Origin: Acidobacteriota bacterium
Lineage (GTDB): Bacteria; Acidobacteriota; UBA890; WLXD01
NCBI GenBank assembly: GCA_963666215.2
Contig: CAXWPL010000005.1
Coordinates: 1,024,001-1,088,000 of the forward strand
Reading direction: 5' to 3'
DNA: 64,000 bases
A program made the translations under genes and the position numbers. Below the pieces are notes generated by a model. That model had not been told where the DNA came from. It searched no databases and saw nothing but the letters and a program-made list of their open reading frames with translations. Below are positions 5,887 through 57,898 of the stretch, piece by piece; positions within the stretch are counted from its first letter, which is position 1; the number at the start of each line of letters is the position of its first letter.

Positions 5887-6035
5887 CGCGGACCAGGCCA
5901 ACGTTAGCGAACCCACCCCCGCTGGGGCAAGTCGATTATCGCGGTCGGTCCAAGCTTGGCCACCGGTGGCCGGGGCCGATCGACGGTATTCTCGTGTTGC
6001 GTGTAAGATCGCGGTCGAGTAGCGTTCGCTACAGT

Positions 6036-6161
6036 ACTCATCGCGACCGGCGGAGGGACTGGCCCTTCGATGCCGGGGCAACCTGCGGACGAGCACTTTG
6101 CGAGGCTCGGCGCGTGGTGCCAATTCCTGCGGTGGCTCAAACGAGCTGCCGGAAGATGAGC
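6036..6161 (+). ncRNA. SAM-I (S-box) riboswitch aptamer
   Basis: P1 CTCATC/GATGAG with the conserved GGCGGAGGGACTGGCCC, GGCAACC and GGTGCCAATTCC elements, located upstream of metX. Confidence 0.93.
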
Positions 6162-6181
6162 GGGCGAAGCAGCATCCGTCG

Positions 6182-45100: not shown

Positions 45101-46228
45101 TTGCCCACGCGTCGACACCTTCTTCGAGCCGGCGCGACAGTTGCCACCGCTTCGGCACTGGACTGGGATGGGCTGGCGCTAGCGGCGCAAAATGCTACTC
45201 GGCGACGACGCTTTCCGCCTCTGCCGCGCGTCAACGGAGCGATCAACATCCAACCGTTACGCCGGCTCGACGGCGTGTCCGATTTCACACCGCCAATCAT
45301 CGTGCCGGAGCTCGTCGACCTGCAGATGCAGCAGATCTACGAGCTCGGGTTCGAACGCGTGCGAATTACGTTGTCGTTCGGCAACTTCGGGCCGGATCTG
45401 CTTGCGGCAGTGCCGTACGTACGAGCCTGTCGGGCGTTGGGAATCGATGTGCTCGGCTTGCTCAGCGACTTCGGGTTCAGCCTGGCGTTAGCCCAGGCGC
45501 TGAACGACCCTCTGAGACGCGACACGGTTATCGACGCCTACGTCGCGGTGTTCACGGCCCCAGTGGAACCGGCAACACCTCAGGTGGAACGGGCCGGTGA
45601 GACCGCGCTGCAGGTGTTCAACGAGCCCACCAACTTCCTCGGCATCGCGCCGGAGCAGTATGTGCGGTTTCTGCTCGCACCGACCTTCGCGGCACTGAAG
45701 GAACGGGCGCCCGGGATCGTCGTGGTCTCGGCTGCGACGGTGGGACGTCTGGACGGTGTGCTACGCGCGCGGCGTATGTTCGAGGCCGGTCTGGAGGACT
45801 TCTGCGACGTCGTGGCCCATCACGTGTACGACCTGCGTCAGCTCGAGCAGCTCGGTGGCATGGCGCGCAAGCCGATCTGGGTCACGGAGTCCGGTGTCCG
45901 CGGCCCGGGGGCTCACCTCGCGTGGGTAACCGAACGGTTTCCCGAGATCAGCGAACGTCTCGGAGACGTGCAACACATCTACTACTTCGACCTGTTCGAC
46001 CCGGAGCCCGGCGCCTTCCGGTTGATCGATGTGTACGAAAACGAGCCCGGAAGCTTCGCGACACGGGTTGAATCGACCAGTTTGGTCAACCACTTCAGCA
46101 GGCGCGTCGCCGCGGCTGCCGGAGGGGCGCGCCATGCCACATATCGCGAGCTCATTCCCGACATTCGCGAGTACTTCCCAACTGCAGAGGACCTGGCGAT
46201 TTTCGGCGTCGACGGCATCGAGCTATGA
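45101..46228 (+). CDS. Tat-exported clan GH-A-like glycoside hydrolase
   Basis: Tat motif TRRHLL, acid/base motif FNEP, AHHVY and nucleophile motif PIWVTESG. Start at TTG45101 is inferred. Confidence 0.7.
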   Translation: MPTRRHLLRAGATVATASALDWDGLALAAQNATRRRRFPPLPRVNGAINIQPLRRLDGVSDFTPPIIVPELVDLQMQQIYELGFERVRITLSFGNFGPDLLAAVPYVRACRALGIDVLGLLSDFGFSLALAQALNDPLRRDTVIDAYVAVFTAPVEPATPQVERAGETALQVFNEPTNFLGIAPEQYVRFLLAPTFAALKERAPGIVVVSAATVGRLDGVLRARRMFEAGLEDFCDVVAHHVYDLRQLEQLGGMARKPIWVTESGVRGPGAHLAWVTERFPEISERLGDVQHIYYFDLFDPEPGAFRLIDVYENEPGSFATRVESTSLVNHFSRRVAAAAGGARHATYRELIPDIREYFPTAEDLAIFGVDGIEL

Positions 46229-47778
46229 GGCGGCTTCGCGGCGCCGGCGGCGGCTCCACGGCGGTGGCACGCGCGGGCTTGGGGCTCGCGCTGGTTGCCT
46301 GGGGGCTGGCACCGACGCCGGCCCGAGCTCAGGCAAAGCCATCGAAGGTCGCCAACCAGCCCGAGGCCATCGAAGAGGTCGATGGTACGGCCAACAGCTC
46401 GGCGCCGCAGGAAACGGACGCCGAGACGAGTCCCGAGTCGCCGGCATATCCGTTCGGGCCACTTCGTCTGCCCTGTTCGCTCGCGCCTTGCGGCAAGTTT
46501 CGGTTGGTCGATCTCGCTCTGTTGCCAACGATCGAGGATGGCTTCGAGCCGAGCACATCGGCCCGTGTGCGTATCGGCAACACGGCGATCGTTGGCGCGC
46601 GCGCCGGCCAGGCTGGCAATGGATTCGAGCTGCGGACGTCTCGCCTCGACTTCTCCTACCTGGAGCGCGACGGTCGCCATCGGCTCGATACCGTCTATCG
46701 AGGATCGCGCGTGAGGCTGGATACGAGCGCCGTTCGGCGACCGACGGCCCTCGAAGGTGGCTGGGTTCTTGATGGCGCCGCGGCGCTTCGGCTTGGGCCC
46801 GACTTCGAGGTCATCGTCGGTGGCCTCTACGACCTCGACGGCGACAGCTCACCGCTGCTCGCAACGCGACCGACGCGCGTGCGACGGGTGCGAGTTCTCT
46901 GGCAGCGCCGCAACAACCTGCAGCTGTCGGCCGCGGCAGTGGCATCGCAGTTCCTCACCACCGGCGGAGAGCAACTCGACAGCAGCGCCTACAGCGGCGC
47001 GGTGACCTTCCAAGCACGAAGGCTTCAGCTGCGAGCCGAAGTCGGACACGAGCACATCAACGGACGCTTCGGTCGCCGAGAGTGGCTCGCGGTGCTGGGC
47101 GGCAATTTTCTGGTTGGCTCTCGCCTCCTATTGGAAGGAGAAACCCTCAACCGCTGGGAGATCGGCCTCAAGAAGACCGAGCGCGACTACCGCGTCAGCG
47201 CCACGCTGTTCGGGCGCGACTATCGCTTTGCGCGCACGAGCCCGACCGCGCGGCGAACGCGCAGCATCACCGACCGTGCCTGGGAGCTCGGCTACAACGA
47301 GCGTAGACCGTTCACGCTCGACGGGCGGCGAGCACTGCGCGAACGGCTGTCTCTGTCGGCTCATCGCGACGAGCTCGGAGCGGACGTCGAGTCCATGTAC
47401 AGGTCCACGATCGCGGAGCGCAACGTGCCCCTGGTTCGAGCAGAGTTCGCTCGAGAAACAGAGCCCATCGACGGCTCCATTGTGCGAACGTATGGCGCCA
47501 CGATCGGAATCCCCTGGCGTGGAGGATTCGCGACCCCTTGGAGCCACGACGAGCGTTTCGTCGACTTCGTGCGGCTGTCGTTCGAGCGCGTCGAAGCCGA
47601 CTTCACGCCGAACTTGAAGCGCTCGGCGCGCAGCCTCGGCGTAACGCTCGATCTCGATCGCGAAACACAGATCGTGGCGCGCTGGACCGAGCCGCTCCTC
47701 GATCCTTTGATCGTTGTGCTCAGCACGCGGACCCATCAGCGATTCGAGCTCGGACTGCGCTACAGCTTCTGGCGCTAG
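46225..47778 (+). CDS. Hypothetical exported protein, probably an outer-membrane beta-barrel
   Basis: Signal peptide ending ARA, alternating amphipathic strands and C-terminal FELGLRYSF; ATGA overlap with the upstream gene. Confidence 0.55.
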   Translation: MRRLRGAGGGSTAVARAGLGLALVAWGLAPTPARAQAKPSKVANQPEAIEEVDGTANSSAPQETDAETSPESPAYPFGPLRLPCSLAPCGKFRLVDLALLPTIEDGFEPSTSARVRIGNTAIVGARAGQAGNGFELRTSRLDFSYLERDGRHRLDTVYRGSRVRLDTSAVRRPTALEGGWVLDGAAALRLGPDFEVIVGGLYDLDGDSSPLLATRPTRVRRVRVLWQRRNNLQLSAAAVASQFLTTGGEQLDSSAYSGAVTFQARRLQLRAEVGHEHINGRFGRREWLAVLGGNFLVGSRLLLEGETLNRWEIGLKKTERDYRVSATLFGRDYRFARTSPTARRTRSITDRAWELGYNERRPFTLDGRRALRERLSLSAHRDELGADVESMYRSTIAERNVPLVRAEFARETEPIDGSIVRTYGATIGIPWRGGFATPWSHDERFVDFVRLSFERVEADFTPNLKRSARSLGVTLDLDRETQIVARWTEPLLDPLIVVLSTRTHQRFELGLRYSFWR

Positions 47779-47810
47779 CTCCGACCCTGTGCGCGAGCTC
47801 CCGCGGCCAC

Positions 47811-48536
47811 CTACCTGTCGCCAGAGGTGGCCGTGTTGCCGAGCAGCTGAGCCACGCCCGACGCGATGAATTCCGCTGAGTCGTCGTGGCGAAACGTGTA
47901 GCGCACAGTCCCGGCGCCGTCGATCAGATAGACGTACGTCGAATGCGCCAAGAGCGGGCGCTCGTCGGTCGATTCGGGGGTCGGCTGCACCATCGCGGCG
48001 TACTGACGCACAACCTCGTCGATCTGCTCTTGGCTACCGGTGAGGCCAATCGCGTCGAGCGCGAAGTAGCCCAGGTAGTCGGTGAGCCTCTCGGGCGTAT
48101 CGCGCTCCGGATCAATCGACACGAACAGCGTTGTGAAGGCGGGGGACGAGTATCCCTGCCCCGCGAGGCGCTCCTGCACGCGGGTCAACAACGAAAGCGT
48201 TACCGGGCAGAAGTCTGGACAGGAGGCATAGCCGAAGAACAGCAGGTGCGTACGATCGCGGCGACCCGAAAGCCGGAAGGAGGCTCCCGCCTGATCCATG
48301 AGCTCGAAGTCGCCGCCGAAGTCGAAAGTCTGCAATTCAGGCGGTGCCGCGGCGGGCCCCGGGCCTGGACTGCCGGAGCCGCGCGGTGTGGACGGCGAGG
48401 GCGGCGCCGCTGGCACGTCCCCGCCGCCGCAAGCGCTCGCCGCGACCGCGAAGACAAGCGCAACGCCAGCCATAGCGCGCGGAATTCCGCTTTCCATCGG
48501 CGTTCCCCTCCTGTTCGCGACACGCAGCCGCATCAT
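47811..48536 (-). CDS. SCO1/SenC copper chaperone lipoprotein
   Basis: Motifs FFGYASCPDFCP, SIDPERDT and AHSTYVYLID; lipobox ASAC. Confidence 0.93.
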   Translation of the reverse strand: MMRLRVANRRGTPMESGIPRAMAGVALVFAVAASACGGGDVPAAPPSPSTPRGSGSPGPGPAAAPPELQTFDFGGDFELMDQAGASFRLSGRRDRTHLLFFGYASCPDFCPVTLSLLTRVQERLAGQGYSSPAFTTLFVSIDPERDTPERLTDYLGYFALDAIGLTGSQEQIDEVVRQYAAMVQPTPESTDERPLLAHSTYVYLIDGAGTVRYTFRHDDSAEFIASGVAQLLGNTATSGDR

Positions 48537-49276
48537 TCACGCCTCTCCACGGGCGCCACAATCCGTTCGATCGATCCATCGTCGAACTGCAGCGTCAGGG
48601 CGACATTGTCACCCGCCACGAGCCGGTGTCGTACCCCGACGAGCATCAGGTGCAGCCCGCCGCTCTCGAAGCGCACCGTCTCGCCGCTCGCGATCGGCAG
48701 GCGACCTACCGGCTGCATGCGCACAACCGCCCCGGCCTCGACCGCGCGGTGTACCCGCACCGACTCGGCGGCGTCGCTGTGGGCACCGACAAGCCACACC
48801 GTCTCGCTCCCCCGATTGATCAACACGAGCCACAGCACCGCGCTGTCGACCGTTGGCGGCATCTCCGATACCCACGCGCCGACCGCATCGATTGCGGCGG
48901 CTGACCGCCACTGCTTGGAAACCACGTACGTGGCCAGGAGATGCAGCTCGGTCTCGGACAGATGCCCGTAAACGGGCATGCCGCCCTCGGGCGACTCGAT
49001 CCCAGAGCCGATCGTGGCAGCGATCTGCTCGACACTCGACCCGGCCTTGTAGGAATCCGGATCACGATAGTCGCGTGGCGGCGGGTCCAGCAGCGCCGCG
49101 TTGGGCCCATCGCCAGCGCCCTCGTTGCCGTGACACAGGGCGCAGCCGATGTCGGCATAGAGCTGCCGACCAGCCGCGACCGCGGCCGCGTTGTCCTCCG
49201 CGAGATCGGGCCTGCCGGGAGCCTGCGACCCACAGCCCATGAGGAGACCGAGAACGGAATACGCGGCCAGAAGCAT
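48533..49276 (-). CDS. Cytochrome c - PCuAC copper chaperone fusion lipoprotein
   Basis: Lipobox LMGC, heme motif CALCH, G.GDGP, axial GMP, then an exact H-X10-M-X21-H-X-M motif. Confidence 0.85.
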   Translation of the reverse strand: MLLAAYSVLGLLMGCGSQAPGRPDLAEDNAAAVAAGRQLYADIGCALCHGNEGAGDGPNAALLDPPPRDYRDPDSYKAGSSVEQIAATIGSGIESPEGGMPVYGHLSETELHLLATYVVSKQWRSAAAIDAVGAWVSEMPPTVDSAVLWLVLINRGSETVWLVGAHSDAAESVRVHRAVEAGAVVRMQPVGRLPIASGETVRFESGGLHLMLVGVRHRLVAGDNVALTLQFDDGSIERIVAPVERRE

Positions 49277-49498
49277 GGATCCTCGTGGCGATCTTCGCAC
49301 CGAAGGATGAGGCCCGACCAGATCCCCTGAAAAGTCATTCAAATACATTAATAGATACTGTTAGTCGTTTACGGACGCTCTTGATCGTCAAAATATAACA
49401 AAAATCCCTGAATCCCCTTTCATAACGCTGCCCCATCGCGGTACATGTGTGGTCAGCGGAATATGGGAGACCCCAGCTGACGCTAAGGACAAAGTCGG

Positions 49499-50269
49499 AT
49501 GCGGCATGGATCGGCTGCCTGGGGGCGATCACTGGCAGCGGGCTTCGTGGGTCTGAGCGGCCTGGCCACAGGCTCGCTCGAACTCGGAGAGCTTACAGGT
49601 GATGGCTTCCTCGTTGGCCTGGGGGTTCTGAGCGCCGGAGCGGTGCTGGCGATCGCGGCTGCGCTCTCGGGACGACAGAGCGGCACGGCCGCTCGAGTCG
49701 TCGGCTACCTCCTGGCTCTGCCTCTCGCCATCGGCTTCTGGTACCTCGGCGGGCTGGTGGCACAGCTGGCCGAGGCGCTCGCGATGCTCGCGCTGCTGAA
49801 CTACCTGAGATCGTGTGTGAACGACATCTGGGGGCCCGTGCAGCGCTGGATCACGGTCGCCCAAGTCGGCGCTCTGCTGTTGCTGGCAATGGCGGGTCTC
49901 GCTCTCACCGGCCCTGCGGGCACCTCACAAACAGTTGGGTTGTTCCTCGCCTGGCTGGTGTTGGCGGTGGGGTTGGGCCGTCTGGGTCATACCTCCCTGG
50001 ACGACCGTGCCCGCCACCGGGGGTTGCTGTTCTGGGCAACCGCAGCTGCGATAGCCGTATGCCACTTGCCGTTACTGATGCTCGCCGCACCCATTCCCGG
50101 AGTATCCCAAGCGATGGCTCCGTACGCGGCGCTCATCGATATCGGCGCCACCGGCGGCGCGATCGTGCTGGGCCTGTGCTGGCTGACCTTCGGGCTGATC
50201 GAGCCGCAGTTCCATCATTTGCGAAATCCGCAGCATCAACACCAGCGCGCTCGCCGCGCGCGGGCCTAG
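49499..50269 (+). CDS. Hypothetical polytopic membrane protein
   Basis: 256-aa ORF that is hydrophobic throughout; no recognised motif. Confidence 0.6.
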   Translation: MRHGSAAWGRSLAAGFVGLSGLATGSLELGELTGDGFLVGLGVLSAGAVLAIAAALSGRQSGTAARVVGYLLALPLAIGFWYLGGLVAQLAEALAMLALLNYLRSCVNDIWGPVQRWITVAQVGALLLLAMAGLALTGPAGTSQTVGLFLAWLVLAVGLGRLGHTSLDDRARHRGLLFWATAAAIAVCHLPLLMLAAPIPGVSQAMAPYAALIDIGATGGAIVLGLCWLTFGLIEPQFHHLRNPQHQHQRARRARA

Positions 50270-50393
50270 CTGACAGCTGGCGGCAACGCGCCTCGATCAG
50301 GTGCGACACGCGGGACGGCCAGGCAGCCGGCCTCGATGGGCGGTAGAATGACGTTTCGCCGCCTCATTCCTCCGCACCCGGCGTAGTCCATCG

Positions 50394-50792
50394 ATGCAAG
50401 GCACGACAACGGGCCCGTTTCGGCCGTCTCCGTTCGTCTACGACCGTCGACTCGGCAAGGTCCGCCTCTTCGTCAAGGAGCATCTCGAGGGCGATATCTC
50501 TCTCGAGACCGCCGCCGACGTCGCCGGGCTCGAACGCCACTACTTCTCGCGCCATTTCTATCGTGCCGTTGGGGTGCACTTCCGCGAATGGCTCCACGGT
50601 GTGCGGGTTCGCAGCGCGGCGAAGATCCTGAGCAAACACGATGAAAGCGTGCTCGACGTCGCATACAGCGTGGGCTACCGCGACATTCGAACGTTCCAGC
50701 GCGCCTTCAAAGGATACTTCGGTGTGACCCCGCGCGAGTACAAGCTCGGAAAGCGGCCGCTACCGCCGGGCGGGCAGTTGAGGTTCGACTGA
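50394..50792 (+). CDS. AraC/XylS-family regulator, DNA-binding domain only
   Basis: Motifs SLETAADVAGL..YFSRHF and SVLDVAYSVGY.D..TFQRAFK..GVTPREY; 132 aa; a TAGAAT -10 box lies at 50344-49. Confidence 0.92.
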   Translation: MQGTTTGPFRPSPFVYDRRLGKVRLFVKEHLEGDISLETAADVAGLERHYFSRHFYRAVGVHFREWLHGVRVRSAAKILSKHDESVLDVAYSVGYRDIRTFQRAFKGYFGVTPREYKLGKRPLPPGGQLRFD

Positions 50793-50832
50793 TGCCCGCG
50801 TAGCCCGTCAGCACCGGCCTGAAGGGCCAGAA

Positions 50833-50895
50833 GACAACCGTTGCCGCATTCTCGACAACGCTTGCCGCGAAACGCCGCGCGCAGAGCATTACTCT
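50833..50895 (+). promoter_or_regulatory. 21-bp-periodic direct repeat GACAACNNTTGCCGC x2 plus -10 box TACTCT
   Basis: Copies at 50833-47 and 50854-68 are identical at 13 of 15 positions; TACTCT lies at 50890-95. Confidence 0.55.
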
Positions 50896-50903
50896 TGTCC
50901 TTG

Positions 50904-51074
50904 TTCGATGCGCGCTGTGAGCCCGTTCCACCTCATCATCCATTTGAGGGGTCTCCCGGCTAGGCACGGGTACACAGCACGCTCGAATCTTCGACGCGCG
51001 GCGTGAGTTCGCTCCACCTCATCACGAAATGAGGGGTCTCCCGGCTGGGAGTGTACTCACCCGCGCGTCGTTTT
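50904..51074 (+). ncRNA. Candidate tandem two-domain structured RNA
   Basis: Two units (50904-50987 and 50992-51070) share one fold, with covarying outer stems and an invariant GGTCTCCCGGCT bulge; the second is followed by TTTT. Confidence 0.6.
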
Positions 51075-51351
51075 CGTGTCGGGCACTTGCATCCGCACCG
51101 CGCTCGGTGCATCGGCCATGCCGACTGCAGAAGCTGGCCACGAGCCGTTCTAGAGACGCTCAACAGGACGGTCGCCGACGCGCACGCGCCGCACGACAGT
51201 CGCGGCGAGCGAGACCGCCGAGCAGTTGCTCCGCACATGAGCCGGGAATCCATCGAGCGGAACGTGGAACGGGGCGGGAACTTAATTACTCCCTCCGCGT
51301 ATATACCGACGGCGCATTTGAATTCCGAACGCCGAGGATCGAAATGAGCGA

Positions 51352-51696
51352 ATGGAAAGTGCAGGCGTGAGCAGCCTCGAGTATCACGTGCTGTTGGCGA
51401 TGGTCGAGGGACCGTTGTACGGCTACGCAATTAAGAGCGCGGTCGAAACCGAGTCTGCGGGGGCTCTCACGCCCCGGGCCGGCTCTCTCTACAGGGTCTT
51501 GGCGCGGCTGATCACGACGGGTCTCGTGGTCGAGGCCGAGGCACCGGATCCCGGCTCTCCGCATCCCGGACGGACGCGCAAGTACTACGGCTTGACCGAG
51601 CCGGGGCGCGAGATCCTCGCCTCCGAGGCGCGTCGCCTGCGTTACGTGTCGGAGCTCGCTGAGGGGCGCCTGGGAATTGCCAGAGGACGGAGGTGA
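51352..51696 (+). CDS. PadR-family regulator (acidobacterial type)
   Basis: Motifs YHVLLAM..GPLYGYAI, GSLYRVL.RL and RKYYGLT..G. Confidence 0.92.
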   Translation: MESAGVSSLEYHVLLAMVEGPLYGYAIKSAVETESAGALTPRAGSLYRVLARLITTGLVVEAEAPDPGSPHPGRTRKYYGLTEPGREILASEARRLRYVSELAEGRLGIARGRR

Positions 51697-54356
51697 AGGG
51701 CCTTCTCGCTCTCCTGGTGCGACTCTTCCCCGTCGAGTTCCGCGTGCAGTTCGCGCCGGACATGCTGGAACAGATGCGGCTCGACCACGGACGCGCCCTC
51801 CAGCGCGGCCGCCTAACGGCCGTCGGATTCACGGTTTCCACGGCGCTCGACTTGCTCGGTGCGGCCATCGCCGAGCGACGAGATCCCTCTTGGAAGAGCC
51901 CGCGGCACCGCCTAACGGGAAACGAGGACAGAGCAACCATGCTGAGTAGCTGGATCAACGATCTACGCCATGCCGCTTTTGCGCTACGCCGCGCGCCTGG
52001 ATTCACCGCGGTCACGATCGTGACGCTGGGGCTGGCGATCGGCGCCAACGTCAGCATCTTCAGCGTCGTCGACGCCGTGCTGCTGAATCCGCTGCCGTAC
52101 GCCGACGCCGATCGACTCGTGCACATCGCGGCGTCGGCGCCGGGCTCGGACTTCCCCGAGGAATTCGGCGTCGCGGCCGAGTTCTACGTGCATTACACGG
52201 AGCGATCGCAACTGCTCGAGTCCGTCTCGACCTACAACTCGTTCACCAACACGCTGCGGTTGGACGACCGAATCGAGCGAGTGCGCATGTCGTGGCCGAC
52301 GTGGACGTTTTTCCACACGCTTCAAGCAACGCCGCTGTTGGGGCGTCTGCCGGCGGCAGAAGACGAGGATAGCGGCGTGGTGATTAGCCACGCGCTGTGG
52401 AACACGTGGTTCGGATCCGATCCCGACGTCATTGGAAGCACCGTCTACGTGAGCGGCGGCGACCGAACGGTGATCGGCGTCATGGGCCCAGATTTCTGGT
52501 TCCCCAGCGAAGACACGCTGCTGGGGCTCTCGAACGTCGTAGACATCGAAGATCTGACGCCGCGGCGATTCGGGCAACCGTTGGTCGCTCGCCTCGCACC
52601 GGGCGTTGATCGTGCGACGCTCGCCGCCGAGCTCAACGGACTGGCGCTCGAGCTCCCCGAGCGGTTCGGTGGATCGGCCAACTACGCCGAATTGATTGGC
52701 CAGCACCGCGCCGTGATTCGCCCGCTCAGCGAACAACTACTGGGTGTAGCGGCGGGCCCGCTGTGGATCCTTCTGGGCGCCGTGGCCATCGTCCTGTTGA
52801 TCGCGTGCGCTAATGTCGCGAACCTGTTCACGGTGCGCGCCGAACACCGTCAGCGCGACCTGGCGGTACGACGAGCGCTTGGCGCCGGTCGCGGCGCCTT
52901 GGTCCGTTCACAACTGGCCGAAGCCGTGATCATCGCCGGGTTCGCCGCCGCTCTGGCGGTTGTGCTCGCCTGGCTGGGCGTTCCCGCGTTCATCAGCGCC
53001 GCTCCGGCGGGTGTGCCGCGGATCGGACAGGCAGGGCTGACCGCGTCGACGCTTCTGTTCACAGTCGCCGCGGCCGCATTCGCGGCACTTGTCTGCGGCG
53101 TCGTGCCAGCACTTCGCGCCTCGTCGCCCCGGTTGACGCGACTGCAGGAGTCGGGTCGCGGCTCCACTCGCGAGCGTCACTGGGGCCGCGATGCCCTGGT
53201 CGTCGGGCAAACCGCGCTCGCCCTGGTTCTGCTCATCGAGTCGGGGCTCTTGATCCGGAGCTTCTTGGAGCTACAACGAGTCGATCCGGGTTATGACCTC
53301 ACCAATATCTACACCTTCCAGATCGCCCCCGACGACGATCACCTGCGAGACGCAGCCTCGTTCGCGCGTTTCCACACCGATTTCGCGGATCGTATCGCCG
53401 CCATGCCCGGGGTCGAGTCGGTGGGTCTGATCGAGAACGTGCCGCTCAACGAGGGGCTTTCCATCGCCGGTTTCTTCACCGAGGCTACCCCCGCCGACTC
53501 GAGCGGGACACACATGAGTTACACCTGGAGCGCTGGCGACTACTTCGCCACCATGGGAATCGAGGTCCTGCAGGGACGGCCATTCACCGATAGCGACCAG
53601 GTGTCGACGCTCGGCAACATCGTCATCAGCGAGACGGCGGCGAAGACGCTGTGGCCCGGCGAGAATCCGATTGGCCGTCGGCTTCGCCAGGGCGATCTGG
53701 AGACCTGGGAAACCGTCGTCGGTGTGGTCGAGGACGTCATGCAGGACAGCTTCCGCGACCAGCCCCTGGCCCTCGTCTACTTCCCGTTCGTCGGCCAGTC
53801 ACCTGATAGCCGAGCGATCTCCTCTCCGGCCTACGTGGTGAAGACGAGCAGAACCGACACGATCGGGCCCGAGATCCGCGCCGCCGTGCGCGAGGCGTCG
53901 CCAACGGCGCCGATGTACCGCACGTACACCATGGAAGGCCTAGCGGCCGATTCGATGGTCATCGTGTCGTTCACGATGCTCACCCTGGGGATCGCCGCTT
54001 CGCTGGCGCTCACCCTCGGTGCCATCGGATTGTTCGGCGTGCTGTCGTACGTCGTCGCCGAGCGCACGCGCGAGATCGGCGTGCGCATGGCGCTCGGCGC
54101 GGAGGCCGCAAAGGTGCGCCGCATGGTGGTGAAACAGGGCGCCCGGCTGATCGCGGTTGGTGTTGTCGTCGGCGTTGTCGTCGCCACGGCAACCTCGCGC
54201 GTCCTCGCGAGCCTGCTATTCGGCGTGCAATCCACCGACCTCGCCACCTTCGTGGGAATGTCGGCCGCCCTGGTGATGACCGGCTTGCTGGCGAGCTACC
54301 TTCCCGCGCGACGCGCTTCTCGCGTGGATCCGATCGAGTCGCTGCGCAACGACTGA
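51693..54356 (+). CDS. ADOP-type duplicated MacB/FtsX ABC permease
   Basis: Motifs DLRHA...RRAPGFT, LLIACANVANL, RRALGAGR, RTREIGVRMALGA and PARRASRVDP; GTGA overlap with padR. Confidence 0.93.
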   Translation: MKGLLALLVRLFPVEFRVQFAPDMLEQMRLDHGRALQRGRLTAVGFTVSTALDLLGAAIAERRDPSWKSPRHRLTGNEDRATMLSSWINDLRHAAFALRRAPGFTAVTIVTLGLAIGANVSIFSVVDAVLLNPLPYADADRLVHIAASAPGSDFPEEFGVAAEFYVHYTERSQLLESVSTYNSFTNTLRLDDRIERVRMSWPTWTFFHTLQATPLLGRLPAAEDEDSGVVISHALWNTWFGSDPDVIGSTVYVSGGDRTVIGVMGPDFWFPSEDTLLGLSNVVDIEDLTPRRFGQPLVARLAPGVDRATLAAELNGLALELPERFGGSANYAELIGQHRAVIRPLSEQLLGVAAGPLWILLGAVAIVLLIACANVANLFTVRAEHRQRDLAVRRALGAGRGALVRSQLAEAVIIAGFAAALAVVLAWLGVPAFISAAPAGVPRIGQAGLTASTLLFTVAAAAFAALVCGVVPALRASSPRLTRLQESGRGSTRERHWGRDALVVGQTALALVLLIESGLLIRSFLELQRVDPGYDLTNIYTFQIAPDDDHLRDAASFARFHTDFADRIAAMPGVESVGLIENVPLNEGLSIAGFFTEATPADSSGTHMSYTWSAGDYFATMGIEVLQGRPFTDSDQVSTLGNIVISETAAKTLWPGENPIGRRLRQGDLETWETVVGVVEDVMQDSFRDQPLALVYFPFVGQSPDSRAISSPAYVVKTSRTDTIGPEIRAAVREASPTAPMYRTYTMEGLAADSMVIVSFTMLTLGIAASLALTLGAIGLFGVLSYVVAERTREIGVRMALGAEAAKVRRMVVKQGARLIAVGVVVGVVVATATSRVLASLLFGVQSTDLATFVGMSAALVMTGLLASYLPARRASRVDPIESLRND

Positions 54357-54408
54357 AGAAACGCGCAGTGCTCGAGCGTGTTCGAGGAGCGACAGCAGCC
54401 GTGGCCGA

Positions 54409-56553
54409 CTACTCGCGCGCTGCTGTCGTCTCCGCCATCCCCTGCCGGGCCCTCTGCAACTGTTTCGGCATCGCGTCGTCCGTCATGTAACGCTCGAACC
54501 AGTGGCGGAGGTAGAGCTGGGTGCGCAGGAAGTTCGAGGGTTTCGACGACGTCCCGTGCCACTCGTCGTTGAAGCGCACCATCGCGGTCGGCACGCGCAG
54601 CACCTTGAGCGCCGCGTAGAACTCCTCGGTCTGGGAGATCGGCGTACGCAAGTCGTTGACGCCGGTCATCAGCATCGTCGGCGTCTTGACGTTGCCGACA
54701 TACATCAGTGGCGACCTCCGCAGATGCTCGCTCGGGTCTTCCCAGGGCAGATTGTCGAAGTTGCGATACCAGGAGATGCCGTCGGTCGTGCCAACGAACG
54801 ACATCCAGTTGATCACCGGGCAGTTCGACGACGCCGCCGCGAAGCGATCGGTGTGGCCGACAACCCAGGCGGTAAGAACGCCACCGCCCGAGCAACCGTA
54901 GACGTACATGTTGCGCTCGTCGATTGAGCCCTTTGCGACTACCGCGTCGACGCCGGCCATCAGATCGTCGAAGTCCTTGTCGGGGTAGGCACGGTTGATC
55001 GCGTTGCCGAACTCGGTGCCGTAGCCCGACGAGCCCCGAGGATTGCTGTAGAACACAACGTAGCCGTTGGCAGCGTGGTTCTGCCAGCCGAAGTTGAAGC
55101 CGGTGTTGTACATGCCGTGCGGTCCGCCGTGGATCGCCAGCACCAGCGGATAGCTGCGCGCGCCATCGAAATCGGGTGGCCTGATCACCCATCCCTGGAT
55201 GTCGAGCCCGTCCGCGGACTGGTAGTTGATCTCCTCGACCTCGCCCAGCTGGACGCTGGAAAGGAGATTCGCATTAACGTTGGTGAGCCGCGTTATGGCG
55301 CGTGGGTTGTCGACGTCGAACCTGTAGATGTCCCCAGGCTCCTGCGGGCTCGAGATCGTCGCCACGGCAACGCCGCCGCGACTGATGCTGCTCACCGACA
55401 GCATGTGGTCGCCGTCGGTCACCTTCACCGGGCCTTCGGATCCATCGGCGGCAACAAAATAGAGATTGCGCGTGCCATGATCATTAACCGTGAAATGCAG
55501 GCCACTCGAGTCGGACCGCCAGGTCAATCTAGACGGCGAGCGATCGAGCTCCGGCGTCACGCTGCGGGTGTTCGAGCCGTCGGCGTTCATGACGTAGAGC
55601 TGGCGCTCGATGTAGGTCTGCTCCACGAAGGCGTTGCCGGTGAACGCCACCATGCTGCCGTCGGGCGAAACCACGGGGCCCGACTCCGGGCCACGGGCGT
55701 CGGTGAGCTGCGACGTTGCTCCGCTCGCGACGTCAATCGAGTAGATGTTCGAAGCGCGCCAGTGGTGCTCGGCATCTTCCAGCAACAGGCCCGAAAAGTA
55801 GAACTTGCTGCCGTCGGGGCTCCAGACCGGGCTGCCGAAGTTGAAGTTGCCGCTCGAGACCTGGCGCACCGGCCCGCCGTCGGCCGAGGCCACGAAGAGC
55901 TGCTGGAAGCCATCGTCGATGAAGCCGCGCCGGTCGCGCCGGTACAGCGCGCGCTCGACAATGCGGGGCGCCTCGGTCCATTTCGCACCCTGCGGGCGAC
56001 CGGGTAGCTCGATATGCCAATCGTTGTCGGACCGTACCAGCGAGCGGAAGGCGATCTGCGTGCCGTCGGGTGACCACGTCACATCGCTAGGCGAGCTCTC
56101 CACACGGGTGACCTGGCTCGCGGCGACCTCGGCGTCCATCCAGCGAACCCAGATCTGCGAGCCGCGCGGCTCGCCCGGCGCTACGTAGGCGATCCGGGTG
56201 CCGTCGCGCGACCAGATCGCGTCGGAGCCCTCGACCAGCTTGCGCTTGCGCGAACCGTCGGCGTTCATCACCCACAGCTCCGACTCACGCGCGTCGTTGA
56301 CGGCGTCGGTCCAGGTGAGCGTGTAGACGATCCGGCTTCCATCGGGAGAAACCTGCGGGCTGCCGACGCCTTGCATGTGGTGGTACATGTCGAGGCTCAG
56401 TCGCTTGCCCGACATCTGTCCTGAAACGGCGATACCCGCGGCACCCTCCGGCGCCAGCGTCGTGGCGAGCACGGCAACGAAAAGTAGAACGGTGAGCGAC
56501 TGCCGAGAGCGAGCAGCTCTCGATTGGGCACTGGCAACGGGCGACGACGTCAT
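54409..56553 (-). CDS. S9-family acylaminoacyl peptidase with TolB-like propeller
   Basis: WSPDG repeats, IHGGPH, NPRGSSGYG, GCSGGG (Ser), DLRTP and EWHG. Confidence 0.92.
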   Translation of the reverse strand: MTSSPVASAQSRAARSRQSLTVLLFVAVLATTLAPEGAAGIAVSGQMSGKRLSLDMYHHMQGVGSPQVSPDGSRIVYTLTWTDAVNDARESELWVMNADGSRKRKLVEGSDAIWSRDGTRIAYVAPGEPRGSQIWVRWMDAEVAASQVTRVESSPSDVTWSPDGTQIAFRSLVRSDNDWHIELPGRPQGAKWTEAPRIVERALYRRDRRGFIDDGFQQLFVASADGGPVRQVSSGNFNFGSPVWSPDGSKFYFSGLLLEDAEHHWRASNIYSIDVASGATSQLTDARGPESGPVVSPDGSMVAFTGNAFVEQTYIERQLYVMNADGSNTRSVTPELDRSPSRLTWRSDSSGLHFTVNDHGTRNLYFVAADGSEGPVKVTDGDHMLSVSSISRGGVAVATISSPQEPGDIYRFDVDNPRAITRLTNVNANLLSSVQLGEVEEINYQSADGLDIQGWVIRPPDFDGARSYPLVLAIHGGPHGMYNTGFNFGWQNHAANGYVVFYSNPRGSSGYGTEFGNAINRAYPDKDFDDLMAGVDAVVAKGSIDERNMYVYGCSGGGVLTAWVVGHTDRFAAASSNCPVINWMSFVGTTDGISWYRNFDNLPWEDPSEHLRRSPLMYVGNVKTPTMLMTGVNDLRTPISQTEEFYAALKVLRVPTAMVRFNDEWHGTSSKPSNFLRTQLYLRHWFERYMTDDAMPKQLQRARQGMAETTAARE

Positions 56554-56821
56554 GCGAACCTCCGGAGTGGGATCTGCAAGTGGATCGAGACGCCCTATTC
56601 TGCCGGTCGCTGAGGAAAGACACCACCGAGCGAGCCTACCGAGGCCCGTGGGTAGGCTTGTCGCGCTTGCCACCGTCCTCAGACGTACCAGGTCGCGATC
56701 GATCAGCGCGTGGTGTGGTGGGCACGCGACAAGAGAGACGTTTGACCGATTCGCAAGACCCGCGCAGACTGGTCCTGCGAGCGCGCCGACGCCCGGCGCG
56801 GCCCTCCGAGGAACTCCGCCG

Positions 56822-57898
56822 ATGACCACGCATTCGCCTGTCGCCACGACGACCAAGCGCCTGTTCGACCTCGACGACGACGCTGACTACATTGAGGTCC
56901 TCTACCGCGTCATCTTCGACCGCGAGGCCGACGAAGAGGGTCTGCAGTTCTACGTCCATGAGCTGCAGAAGGCATGCCTTACGCGGCGCCAGGTGTTCGA
57001 CCGCATGCTGGCCTCGGAGGAGGCACGCTACGGAATCTGCTTCAAGTACGACTACCAGCACGCGATGCGCGACTTCGTAGAAGTCTTCCCCAACGACAGC
57101 TTCCTGCCTTGGGTCTCGGCGAATCCCCACACCGCCAGCCAGCTGTGTGAGATCACGAATCCGCGTAAGTGGTTCAACGTGGAGTGGACGCACATACTCG
57201 ACGAGCTGCAACTGTCGTCGTCGCCCGAGCTCATGCACCGCAAAGGATTCGAGTGGGCGCAAACGCTGTACGGACTCGACCAGCTAGGCTATTTACACGA
57301 CGGCACACGTTGCCTCGGCGTGGGCAGCGGGCACGAGGCCATCCTGTACTGGCTGGCGAACCGTGTCGGCGAGGTCGTCGCGACCGATCTGTACGAGGGT
57401 GAATGGGTCGACAAGGGCTCACAGGAAGGCAACCCCGACGTCCTGCTCGCCCCTCAGAAGTACGCGCCGTTCGAGTACCGCGAGGACCGGCTGTCGTTTC
57501 TGCAAATGGACGGCCGCAACCTGGAGTTTGAGGACAATTCGTTCGACGTCGTCTTCTCGCTGTCGTCCATCGAGCACTTCGGCGGCAACGAGGCCGCGGC
57601 GCAGGCGATGCGGGAAAAGGCGCGCGTCTGCAGGCCCGGCGGCATCGTCATCGTCGCCACCGAGTTGATCCTCAACGACGCCGCTCATCCGGAGTTCTTC
57701 ACACTCGACGAGATTCGTGAGCACATCGTCGCGGCCTCCGGCATGAAGCTCATCCAGCCGCCCGAGTTCAGCATGCCCAAGCACGCTCTTGACGACCCCT
57801 GCGTGATGCCGCAGGAGGTGTTCCGATGCCCGCACATCGTGCTCGACTTCGATGGCGTCCTCGACACCTCGATCATTCTGTTCTTGCGGCACGCGTGA
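56822..57898 (+). CDS. DUF4214-like N-domain fused to a class I SAM-dependent methyltransferase
   Basis: N-terminal YIEVLYRVIFDREADEEGLQFY..SEE, then HRKGFEW, LGVGSGHE, FDVVFSLSSIEHFG and RPGG. Confidence 0.8.
   Translation: MTTHSPVATTTKRLFDLDDDADYIEVLYRVIFDREADEEGLQFYVHELQKACLTRRQVFDRMLASEEARYGICFKYDYQHAMRDFVEVFPNDSFLPWVSANPHTASQLCEITNPRKWFNVEWTHILDELQLSSSPELMHRKGFEWAQTLYGLDQLGYLHDGTRCLGVGSGHEAILYWLANRVGEVVATDLYEGEWVDKGSQEGNPDVLLAPQKYAPFEYREDRLSFLQMDGRNLEFEDNSFDVVFSLSSIEHFGGNEAAAQAMREKARVCRPGGIVIVATELILNDAAHPEFFTLDEIREHIVAASGMKLIQPPEFSMPKHALDDPCVMPQEVFRCPHIVLDFDGVLDTSIILFLRHA

Follow-up and report, generated by a model that had tools for sequence, protein, structure and literature searches.

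An orphan tandem element of two similar structured units in an Acidobacteriota genome: a candidate RNA within a lineage-specific gene cassette

What kind of element is formed by two similar stretches of about 80 nt, each predicted to fold into a long branched hairpin and set in tandem behind a regulator gene? The question is raised by positions 50904-51074 of a 64,000-nt stretch of DNA from an Acidobacteriota bacterium (GTDB lineage Bacteria; Acidobacteriota; UBA890; WLXD01), namely positions 1,024,001 to 1,088,000 of the forward strand of contig CAXWPL010000005.1 in assembly GCA_963666215.2. This whole stretch is called the window hereafter, and coordinates refer to it unless preceded by a contig label such as C5. 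An initial annotation, made by reading the letters, had described the element as a tandem two-domain structured RNA with covarying stems and an exposed bulge. Our analysis places it as a candidate new RNA at one locus, an orphan, and neither as a new riboswitch or ribozyme class nor as a widespread class of any kind. The reading that appears most plausible to us, if still short of probable, is that of a young, lineage-specific structured RNA of the plus strand, made as the 3' region of the mRNA of its gene cassette or as a stand-alone transcript, ended by the second unit and carrying two identical C-rich seeds.

The two units are co-linear, with an offset of 85-86 nt, and TTTT follows the second at 51071-51074. 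Both display one common architecture: a long imperfect outer helix, one unpaired A, a hairpin CCUCA(U)...(A)UGAGG with variable loop (P2), the invariant 12-mer GGUCUCCCGGCU, one unpaired purine and a CC/GG closure. Their parts, as given by the minimum free energy (MFE) fold and by repeat analysis, are the following.

50904-50987, plus strand: unit 1; outer stem UUCGA, GCG, GCUGUG, GCCCGU and CC with their partners, unpaired A, P2 hairpin CCUCA-9 nt-UGAGG, 12-mer, unpaired A (MFE fold, repeat families D1/D2)
50992-51070, plus strand: unit 2; outer stem CGACGCGCGG, GUGAGU and CGCUCC with their partners, unpaired A, P2 hairpin CCUCAU-6 nt-AUGAGG, 12-mer, unpaired G (MFE fold, inverted repeat I5)
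50950-50961, plus strand: invariant GGUCUCCCGGCU of unit 1, predicted P3 mini-hairpin with UCCC loop
51035-51046, plus strand: invariant GGUCUCCCGGCU of unit 2, predicted P3 mini-hairpin with UCCC loop
51071-51078, plus strand: U-run TTTTCGTG (5 T in 8), directly 3' of the 10-bp G+C-rich base of unit 2; possible intrinsic terminator tail

Fold and repeats thus confirmed a two-unit element of uniform architecture, and the details first described were all present (unpaired A, CC/GG closure, CCUCA/UGAGG, the named outer-stem segments and the terminal TTTT). The plus strand of the tandem element folded at -92.9 kcal/mol (z = -7.75), a value that none of 200 shuffles reached, and the isolated units at -42.0 (unit 1) and -49.7 kcal/mol (unit 2). 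Two direct repeats link the units. The first, of 35 nt, covers their 5' arms (50904-50938 and 50990-51024, 83% identical, spacing 86), and the second, of 20 nt (TGAGGGGTCTCCCGGCTRGG), lies at 50945-50964 and 51030-51049 (95% identical, spacing 85). The bulge sequence, described as near-invariant, contains a 12-mer (GGTCTCCCGGCT) that is exact in both units and occurs exactly twice in the window. Its exposure was not borne out by the predicted fold: instead of an open 12-nt bulge, the 12-mer more likely forms a mini-hairpin consisting of a 4-bp helix (two G-U pairs, worth 4.5-4.9 kcal/mol) and a UCCC tetraloop. UCCC alone is predicted to be unpaired (probability at least 0.93), and the remaining positions do not exceed 0.19. 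According to this model, each unit may be a three-way junction and not a bulged stem; being invariant, the 12-mer offers no covariation by which mini-hairpin and open bulge could be told apart.

Where the two units differ bears directly on their nature. MAFFT aligned them with 57 of 85 columns identical. Within the inner stem of the outer helix (13 pairs), 10 of 26 bases differ and pairs are kept in 11/13 and 12/13 cases, whereas ten random substitutions would leave a mean of 6.2-6.6 pairs (P for the observed retention = 5e-4 with unit 1 as the starting sequence, 7e-3 with unit 2). The 26-nt core (ACCUCAUCA + UGAGGGGUCUCCCGGCU) contains no difference at all (Fisher p = 7e-4 against the inner stem). 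Paired cells amounted to 93.2% in the real structure, compared with 27-43% when partners were slid by 1-3 columns. Among the 13 inner pairs, six are unchanged, two are compensatory doubles (C-G to U-A and U-A to C-G), two are G-C/G-U changes and three switch between pair and mismatch. What had been called covarying stems therefore holds as far as pairing is kept despite divergence; since the units are co-linear paralogs and not independent sequences, covariation here means these few changes in 13 inner pairs, including the two doubles. The conserved part of the units is their centre and their ends have diverged: terminal inverted repeats are present in both but unlike each other, and the position of the bulge shifts.

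Does the element belong to a family already described? At the gathering level of Rfam 15 nothing was found there, and a cmscan search of 50700-51300 at E <= 10 returned only four microRNA precursor models, with 15-20 bits against cut-offs of 63-268 (E 1.6-3.6), in line with the initial annotation, which had not recognised a known riboswitch or ribozyme. The sole gathering-level match in the window lies elsewhere, a SAM-I (S-adenosylmethionine) riboswitch aptamer (RF00162) at 6035-6162 on the plus strand (76.4 bits against a gathering threshold of 44.4, E 3.6e-16). No tRNA- or tmRNA-like cloverleaf was found by ARAGORN in 49000-52000. The genome itself (4.65 Mb, 91.7% complete, 65% G+C) contains the 17-mer TGAGGGGTCTCCCGGCT exactly twice, both times in the element. 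Beyond the two units, further copies were found neither by a pattern with up to two mismatches, nor by BLAST, nor by nhmmer --max, nor by a covariance model (R1, 59 positions) that was built from the two cores and scores 83-85 bits on the units. Tandem Repeats Finder did not call the pair.

A dispersed repeat of the repetitive extragenic palindrome (REP) or miniature inverted-repeat transposable element (MITE) type was rejected, since only two copies exist and both are at the locus; the absence of scattered copies upholds what was first proposed. A related explanation has to be weighed separately: the element could be a decayed selfish palindromic DNA element of MITE/REP-like origin, locally duplicated, its arms kept alike by processes at the DNA level and its RNA without function. 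An imperfect intergenic palindrome of about 80 nt with adjacent copies does resemble REPs, bacterial interspersed mosaic elements (BIMEs) and MITEs, and both units end in inverted repeats (TTCGA...TCGAA in unit 1). The orphan, species-specific distribution and the location within a lineage-specific inserted segment (see below) would also suit such an origin, as would the existence in the same genome of another family of about six dispersed 100-nt hairpin repeats. Moreover, a possible third fragment is found 200 nt downstream:

51230-51273, minus strand: possible degenerate inverted unit fragment, CCCGTTCCAC then 16 nt then TCCCGGCT, block order as in unit 1 (inverted repeat I4)

Its local alignment score of 28 was reached by 0.4% of 500 shuffles, in a weak, post-hoc test. 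Inverted-repeat mobile elements are recognised through conserved ends, and the tandem element displays the opposite pattern, with diverged ends and an invariant asymmetric centre. In addition, it is not dispersed, having two copies only in a 91.7%-complete genome, and no target-site duplication was seen at the unit boundaries when the sequence was read by eye. No transposase gene was found among the open reading frames (ORFs) of at least 110 aa in 46000-57000, eight of which were scanned against Pfam. Plasmid sequences gave two 32-nt matches at E 0.5, and phage sequences none. A selfish origin is consequently regarded as possible, though rather unlikely.

The other hairpin family is an observation in its own right. 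Six copies were found by nhmmer (C2:739008-739106, C1:285587-285685, C4:220518-220612, C4:524928-525001, C1:110878-110954 and C5:1482863-1482923), all on the plus strand of their contigs and one of them about 80 nt after a tRNA gene. They share conserved internal loops (GAUGCAAGG..., GACGCAGGCGAU..., AUCGUCGAGGA) within differing outer stems and have no match in Rfam. As a structured-RNA or repeat family, these hairpins of about 100 nt may hold more promise than the tandem element. The same genome also contains, at C5:195578-195700, a G+C-rich tandem array of a unit of about 15 nt (GGCAGGUGGGCCUGC-like), which gave the most stable 100-nt folds of a genome-wide hairpin scan (-76 kcal/mol).

The neighbourhood offers further grounds for a decision. 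In plus-strand order, it consists of an orphan protein gene, an AraC-type gene, a 112-nt spacer counted from the AraC-like stop codon, the tandem element, a spacer of about 210 nt, the PadR promoter region, a PadR gene and an ADOP permease gene (TIGR03434, 759 bits), so that both genes flanking the element lie on the plus strand. The features on either side of the element are these.

49499-50269, plus strand: orphan hydrophobic protein gene, 256 aa, first of the cassette; no Pfam/NCBIfam family
50394-50792, plus strand: stand-alone AraC-type helix-turn-helix regulator, 132 aa, of MarA/SoxS size (PF12833, PF00165)
50833-50847 and 50854-50868, plus strand: two 15-nt direct repeats GACAACNNTTGCCGC, 21 bp apart, each with a CAAC-N-GTTG-like palindrome (family D4)
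51283-51351, plus strand: probable promoter/operator of the PadR-ADOP operon; bounds the lineage-specific segment on its downstream side (blastn and upstream sequences of relatives G007, G010 and G008)

The orphan protein had one weak match (E 1e-4) in 400 other genomes of the phylum and no paralog in its own genome, and the regulator aligns over nearly the full length of SoxS and MarA. The two GACAACNNTTGCCGC repeats that closely precede unit 1 have no further exact copy in the genome; they are possible regulator binding sites, their 21-bp spacing being suited to such binding. Upstream of the orthologous PadR-ADOP operons in G007 (80% identity), G010 and G008 there are only about 120-135 nt, from which the element is missing, and similarity to the genome under study starts at about 51283. 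About 30-70 nt upstream of PadR, a conserved block (TTACTC, 6-8 nt, CGTATATAC, which contains the palindrome GTATATAC) is shared with the three relatives (loci L101, L102 and L103) and is probably the promoter/operator of the PadR-ADOP operon; GGAAC 16 nt before CGTATA at 51283-51351 in the genome under study resembles promoters of the extracytoplasmic function (ECF) sigma type. Orthologs of PadR-ADOP and of an S9 peptidase are found in relatives without the adjoining orphan membrane protein, AraC-like regulator and tandem element, from which it follows that 49350-51283 is a lineage-specific cassette. The S9 peptidase orthologs of five relatives are not beside PadR, ADOP, AraC-like or membrane protein genes, and the PCuAC ortholog is located elsewhere in relatives. 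Nothing like the element follows the AraC-like relatives in G010 and G016 (41-49% identity). The G+C content of the cassette showed no anomaly.

This arrangement bears on the idea that the element is a riboswitch-like pair of tandem aptamers, binding a ligand or a protein and governing read-through into the efflux-type PadR-ADOP operon. The operon follows after 280 nt on the same strand, P1 of unit 2 has the form of a terminator stem as well, and tandem bulged-stem domains recall the NAD+-I (nadA) and glycine riboswitches (PMC6859854). The NAD+-I riboswitch, the one known tandem stem-bulge RNA of Acidobacteria, has two similar domains with a near-identical C-rich bulge in both (PMC6859854, PMC7297122), and ACANCCCC is its defining bulge (PMC6859854). 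It is located directly before nadA, its second domain containing the ribosome-binding site, and has more than 100 representatives. The present element shares the plan of two similar tandem stem-bulge domains, and its ADOP/PadR neighbourhood is typical of Acidobacteria. Membership was rejected on two grounds: ACANCCCC occurs 7 times in the window but never in 50904-51074, without a cmscan match to the riboswitch at E <= 10, and the genes downstream are PadR and ADOP instead of nadA, with no ribosome-binding site in domain 2. Where the riboswitch counts more than 100 representatives, the element has one. Situated upstream of the conserved PadR promoter, the element is not the leader of the PadR-ADOP operon, whose orthologs in G007, G010 and G008 do without it. 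Furthermore, outer stems of -42 and -50 kcal/mol would appear too stable for ligand switching, and the lack of any homolog in the collections searched sets the element apart from every known riboswitch class. An aptamer pair is very improbable for these reasons.

Lying on the strand of the AraC-like gene, 112 nt past its stop codon, the element invites a simpler account, in which a purely structural 3' end, made of tandem intrinsic terminators or stabiliser hairpins, would insulate PadR-ADOP and the core would have no specific role. Like intrinsic (Rho-independent) terminators, unit 2 has a G+C-rich stem of 10 bp at its base, followed directly by TTTTCGTG at the end of a gene, and a conserved promoter for the PadR operon itself lies further downstream. 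Scans of 49200-51800 called no other terminator-like site on the plus strand, the interval between the membrane-protein and AraC-like genes included. Neither unit was called either, by a rule that needs a loop of 3-8 nt where the unit 2 stem encloses 59 nt. That branched interior with its invariant core is what distinguishes the unit from ordinary terminators: an asymmetric branch conserved at 26 of 26 positions, next to a stem with 10/26 differences, would be unneeded for termination. Unit 1 has no U-run, and terminators of the canonical short kind are present elsewhere in the genome, such as a stem-loop with U-run at C5:522091-522190, identified by reading the sequence. A purely structural role is thus considered unlikely. 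As neither a sigma-70-type promoter nor a plus-strand terminator was called in 49200-51800, both genes and the element could be one transcript.

If the preferred reading of a plus-strand RNA is followed, a mechanism can be outlined. The RNA would arise either as the 3' portion of a transcript of the membrane-protein and AraC-like genes or from a regulator-dependent start of its own just upstream of unit 1, and its 3' end would be formed by the G+C-rich base of unit 2 and the U-run. In each unit, a long clamp helix would hold a small junction that displays GGGGUCUCCC, with UCCC in the tetraloop. The two identical GGGGUCUCCC motifs might then serve as pairing seeds, for which the best candidate partner lies in the leader of the first gene of the cassette:

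49465-49474, plus strand: GGGAGACCCC, 5' leader of the orphan membrane-protein gene; complementary at all 10 positions to GGGGUCUCCC, which is invariant in both units

This site is located 25-34 nt before the ATG of the gene at 49499; counting both strands, the genome has only 10 other, non-self copies of GGGAGACCCC. When the core was compared with the 5' regions of five neighbouring genes, the best duplex was formed with this leader (-25.6 kcal/mol; the 1st and 5th percentiles of random windows are -26.1 and -23.7 kcal/mol). The chance of any complement of at least 10 nt to the 17-nt core is P = 0.013 in the 1,555 nt of cassette that precede the element and P = 0.0012 in a 150-nt leader. Pairing between seed and leader could exert feedback on the cassette, in cis through 5'-3' untranslated region (UTR) pairing or via a released RNA. 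The complement is a lead to a mechanism and not a result. More doubtful still than the RNA itself is the extended proposal of a self-contained, recently evolved cassette, composed of an orphan membrane protein, a MarA-sized activator and a duplicated junction RNA whose GGGGUCUCCC would pair with GGGAGACCCC of its own leader and feed back on the operon.

Two known systems offer the nearest analogies, and the element is a member of neither. The CcsR or 'cuckoo' RNAs of Alphaproteobacteria are, in the sections of the source that deal with them, tandem homologous units directly behind a small gene, with the same C-rich motif in hairpin loops; those of Rhodobacter sphaeroides are made from the 3' UTR of that gene's mRNA, and the Rfam family ar14 holds CcsR-like RNAs (PMC8034643). 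Likeness lies in the tandem units behind a small gene and in the display of a shared C-rich motif. As far as those sections describe them, the differences are several. The CcsR motif CCUCCUCCC sits in two simple hairpin loops per unit, whereas here GGUCUCCCGGCU occupies a junction enclosed by a 23-bp clamp helix; the gene associated with the units is of the DUF1127 type there and an AraC-type regulator here; and CcsR RNAs are conserved across several families, whereas the element was found in one genome only. Membership was rejected because the units lack CCUCCUCCC, the motif given in those sections, and because cmscan returned no match to that family at E <= 10. The second analogy is the icaR mRNA of Staphylococcus aureus, which is controlled by pairing of its 5' and 3' UTRs (PMC3868564). 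Both cases oppose a C-rich 3' motif to a G-rich 5' UTR site, the partner site being only a candidate here. The icaR motif UCCCCUG is reportedly single-copy and said to pair with the Shine-Dalgarno region itself, whereas 11 nt separate the present candidate site from the likely Shine-Dalgarno sequence that follows it, and the motif is duplicated in structured units.

A number of results weigh against a functional plus-strand RNA with two seeds, those on homologues first. With model R1, nothing credible was found in 25 other genomes of the order, which make up the whole class (best 21.5 bits), nor in 150 genomes of the phylum (best 24.3 bits, in a sequence without the 12-mer and with P3 not conserved). 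The exact 17-mer occurred at 27 taxonomically scattered loci of a species-genome collection, none of which exceeded 21 bits by R1, compared with 83-85 bits for the units. Metagenomes yielded no locus with a 20-mer and five with a gapped pattern, attributable to chance and none with the flanks of the units. The lack of a homolog in the collections searched leaves the element without cross-species covariation or comparative validation, and a widespread riboswitch- or ribozyme-like class is not supported. Homologs with a conserved bulge, on which the initial annotation had made function depend, are so far among what was not found.

Other searches of this kind gave the following. Among the five metagenome loci, L081 and L083 reached at most 18.6 bits by R1 and the other three were unreported at E <= 1; L081 lies in what we take to be an IstB-like (IS21 ATPase) coding sequence. 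The family pattern with up to two mismatches was found at seven places in relatives, all by chance and none with an upstream CCTCA arm. Two viral scans gave 2 and 8 loci, consistent with chance and none with unit flanks; L056 and L057 did not exceed 16.1 bits by R1, and L088 and L086, of the eight, 14.6 bits. A literature search by sequence found no mention of the 10-mer GGUCUCCCGG. Contigs of four sequencing runs over 50600-51700 contained no change inside the element and differed only at 50711 and 51326, hence no informative population variation was available.

The remaining adverse points concern the locus itself. The argument from retained pairing is a two-sequence argument and not covariation in the usual sense, and a shuffle control on the pair count (102/500) is uninformative with two rows. 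No sigma-70 promoter was called by a consensus scan in 49200-51800, so the '-10 box' reported before unit 1 (scan of 50300-51800) is unsupported. The leader complement was found post hoc among five neighbouring 5' regions, the leader of the 49499 gene is not itself structured (z = 0.32), and the site lies 11 nt upstream of, and not on, the likely Shine-Dalgarno sequence. Genome-wide, complements of the 12-mer at up to one mismatch numbered 39 against 39 same-sense copies. The earlier idea of a pairing seed has accordingly gained a perfect 10-nt complement in a neighbouring orphan-gene leader, post hoc, and no genome-wide excess. Finally, the minus strand folds nearly as well as the plus strand (-91.3 kcal/mol, z -7.1), and among 13,996 hairpin windows with an 8-nt inverted repeat as seed, unit 2 came only 311th in stability, unit 1 having no seed of that kind. 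In a genome of 65% G+C, stability alone therefore does not make the element stand out.

Equal folding of the two strands is what would be expected of a double-stranded DNA site or cruciform bound by a regulator, AraC-like or PadR, or of a functionless chance product of local duplication. Regulator genes do lie on both sides, and the 20 sequencing runs from 9 studies that contain near-identical DNA of the locus include no RNA run among those listed. On the other hand, known operators of AraC-type and PadR regulators measure about 15-20 bp and are not branched palindromes of 80 bp, and pairing retained after 38% divergence argues against neutrality. An asymmetric invariant 12-mer and G-U pairs make sense only for a single strand: the outer stems have two G-U pairs on the plus strand against one on the minus strand and P3 is formed on the plus strand only, which favours that strand, and the U-run follows unit 2 on the plus strand only. 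A DNA site or a product without function is judged quite improbable in view of these features.

As an orphan, the element has no reach beyond its source organism, for no homolog was found in the collections searched. The main value of the analysis is a clean negative: the element belongs to no known family, is no mobile repeat and does not form the leader of the efflux-type operon that follows. If transcribed and functional, the tentatively preferred plus-strand RNA would represent a new RNA family of very recent origin in a lineage that has been little studied and is for the most part uncultured, and its function would show a structured RNA module arising and duplicating inside a lineage-specific gene cassette, with a candidate partner site 1.4 kb away. 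Should the self-contained cassette prove true, it would offer a rare view of a structured regulatory RNA born by duplication, together with its target site, in a single lineage.

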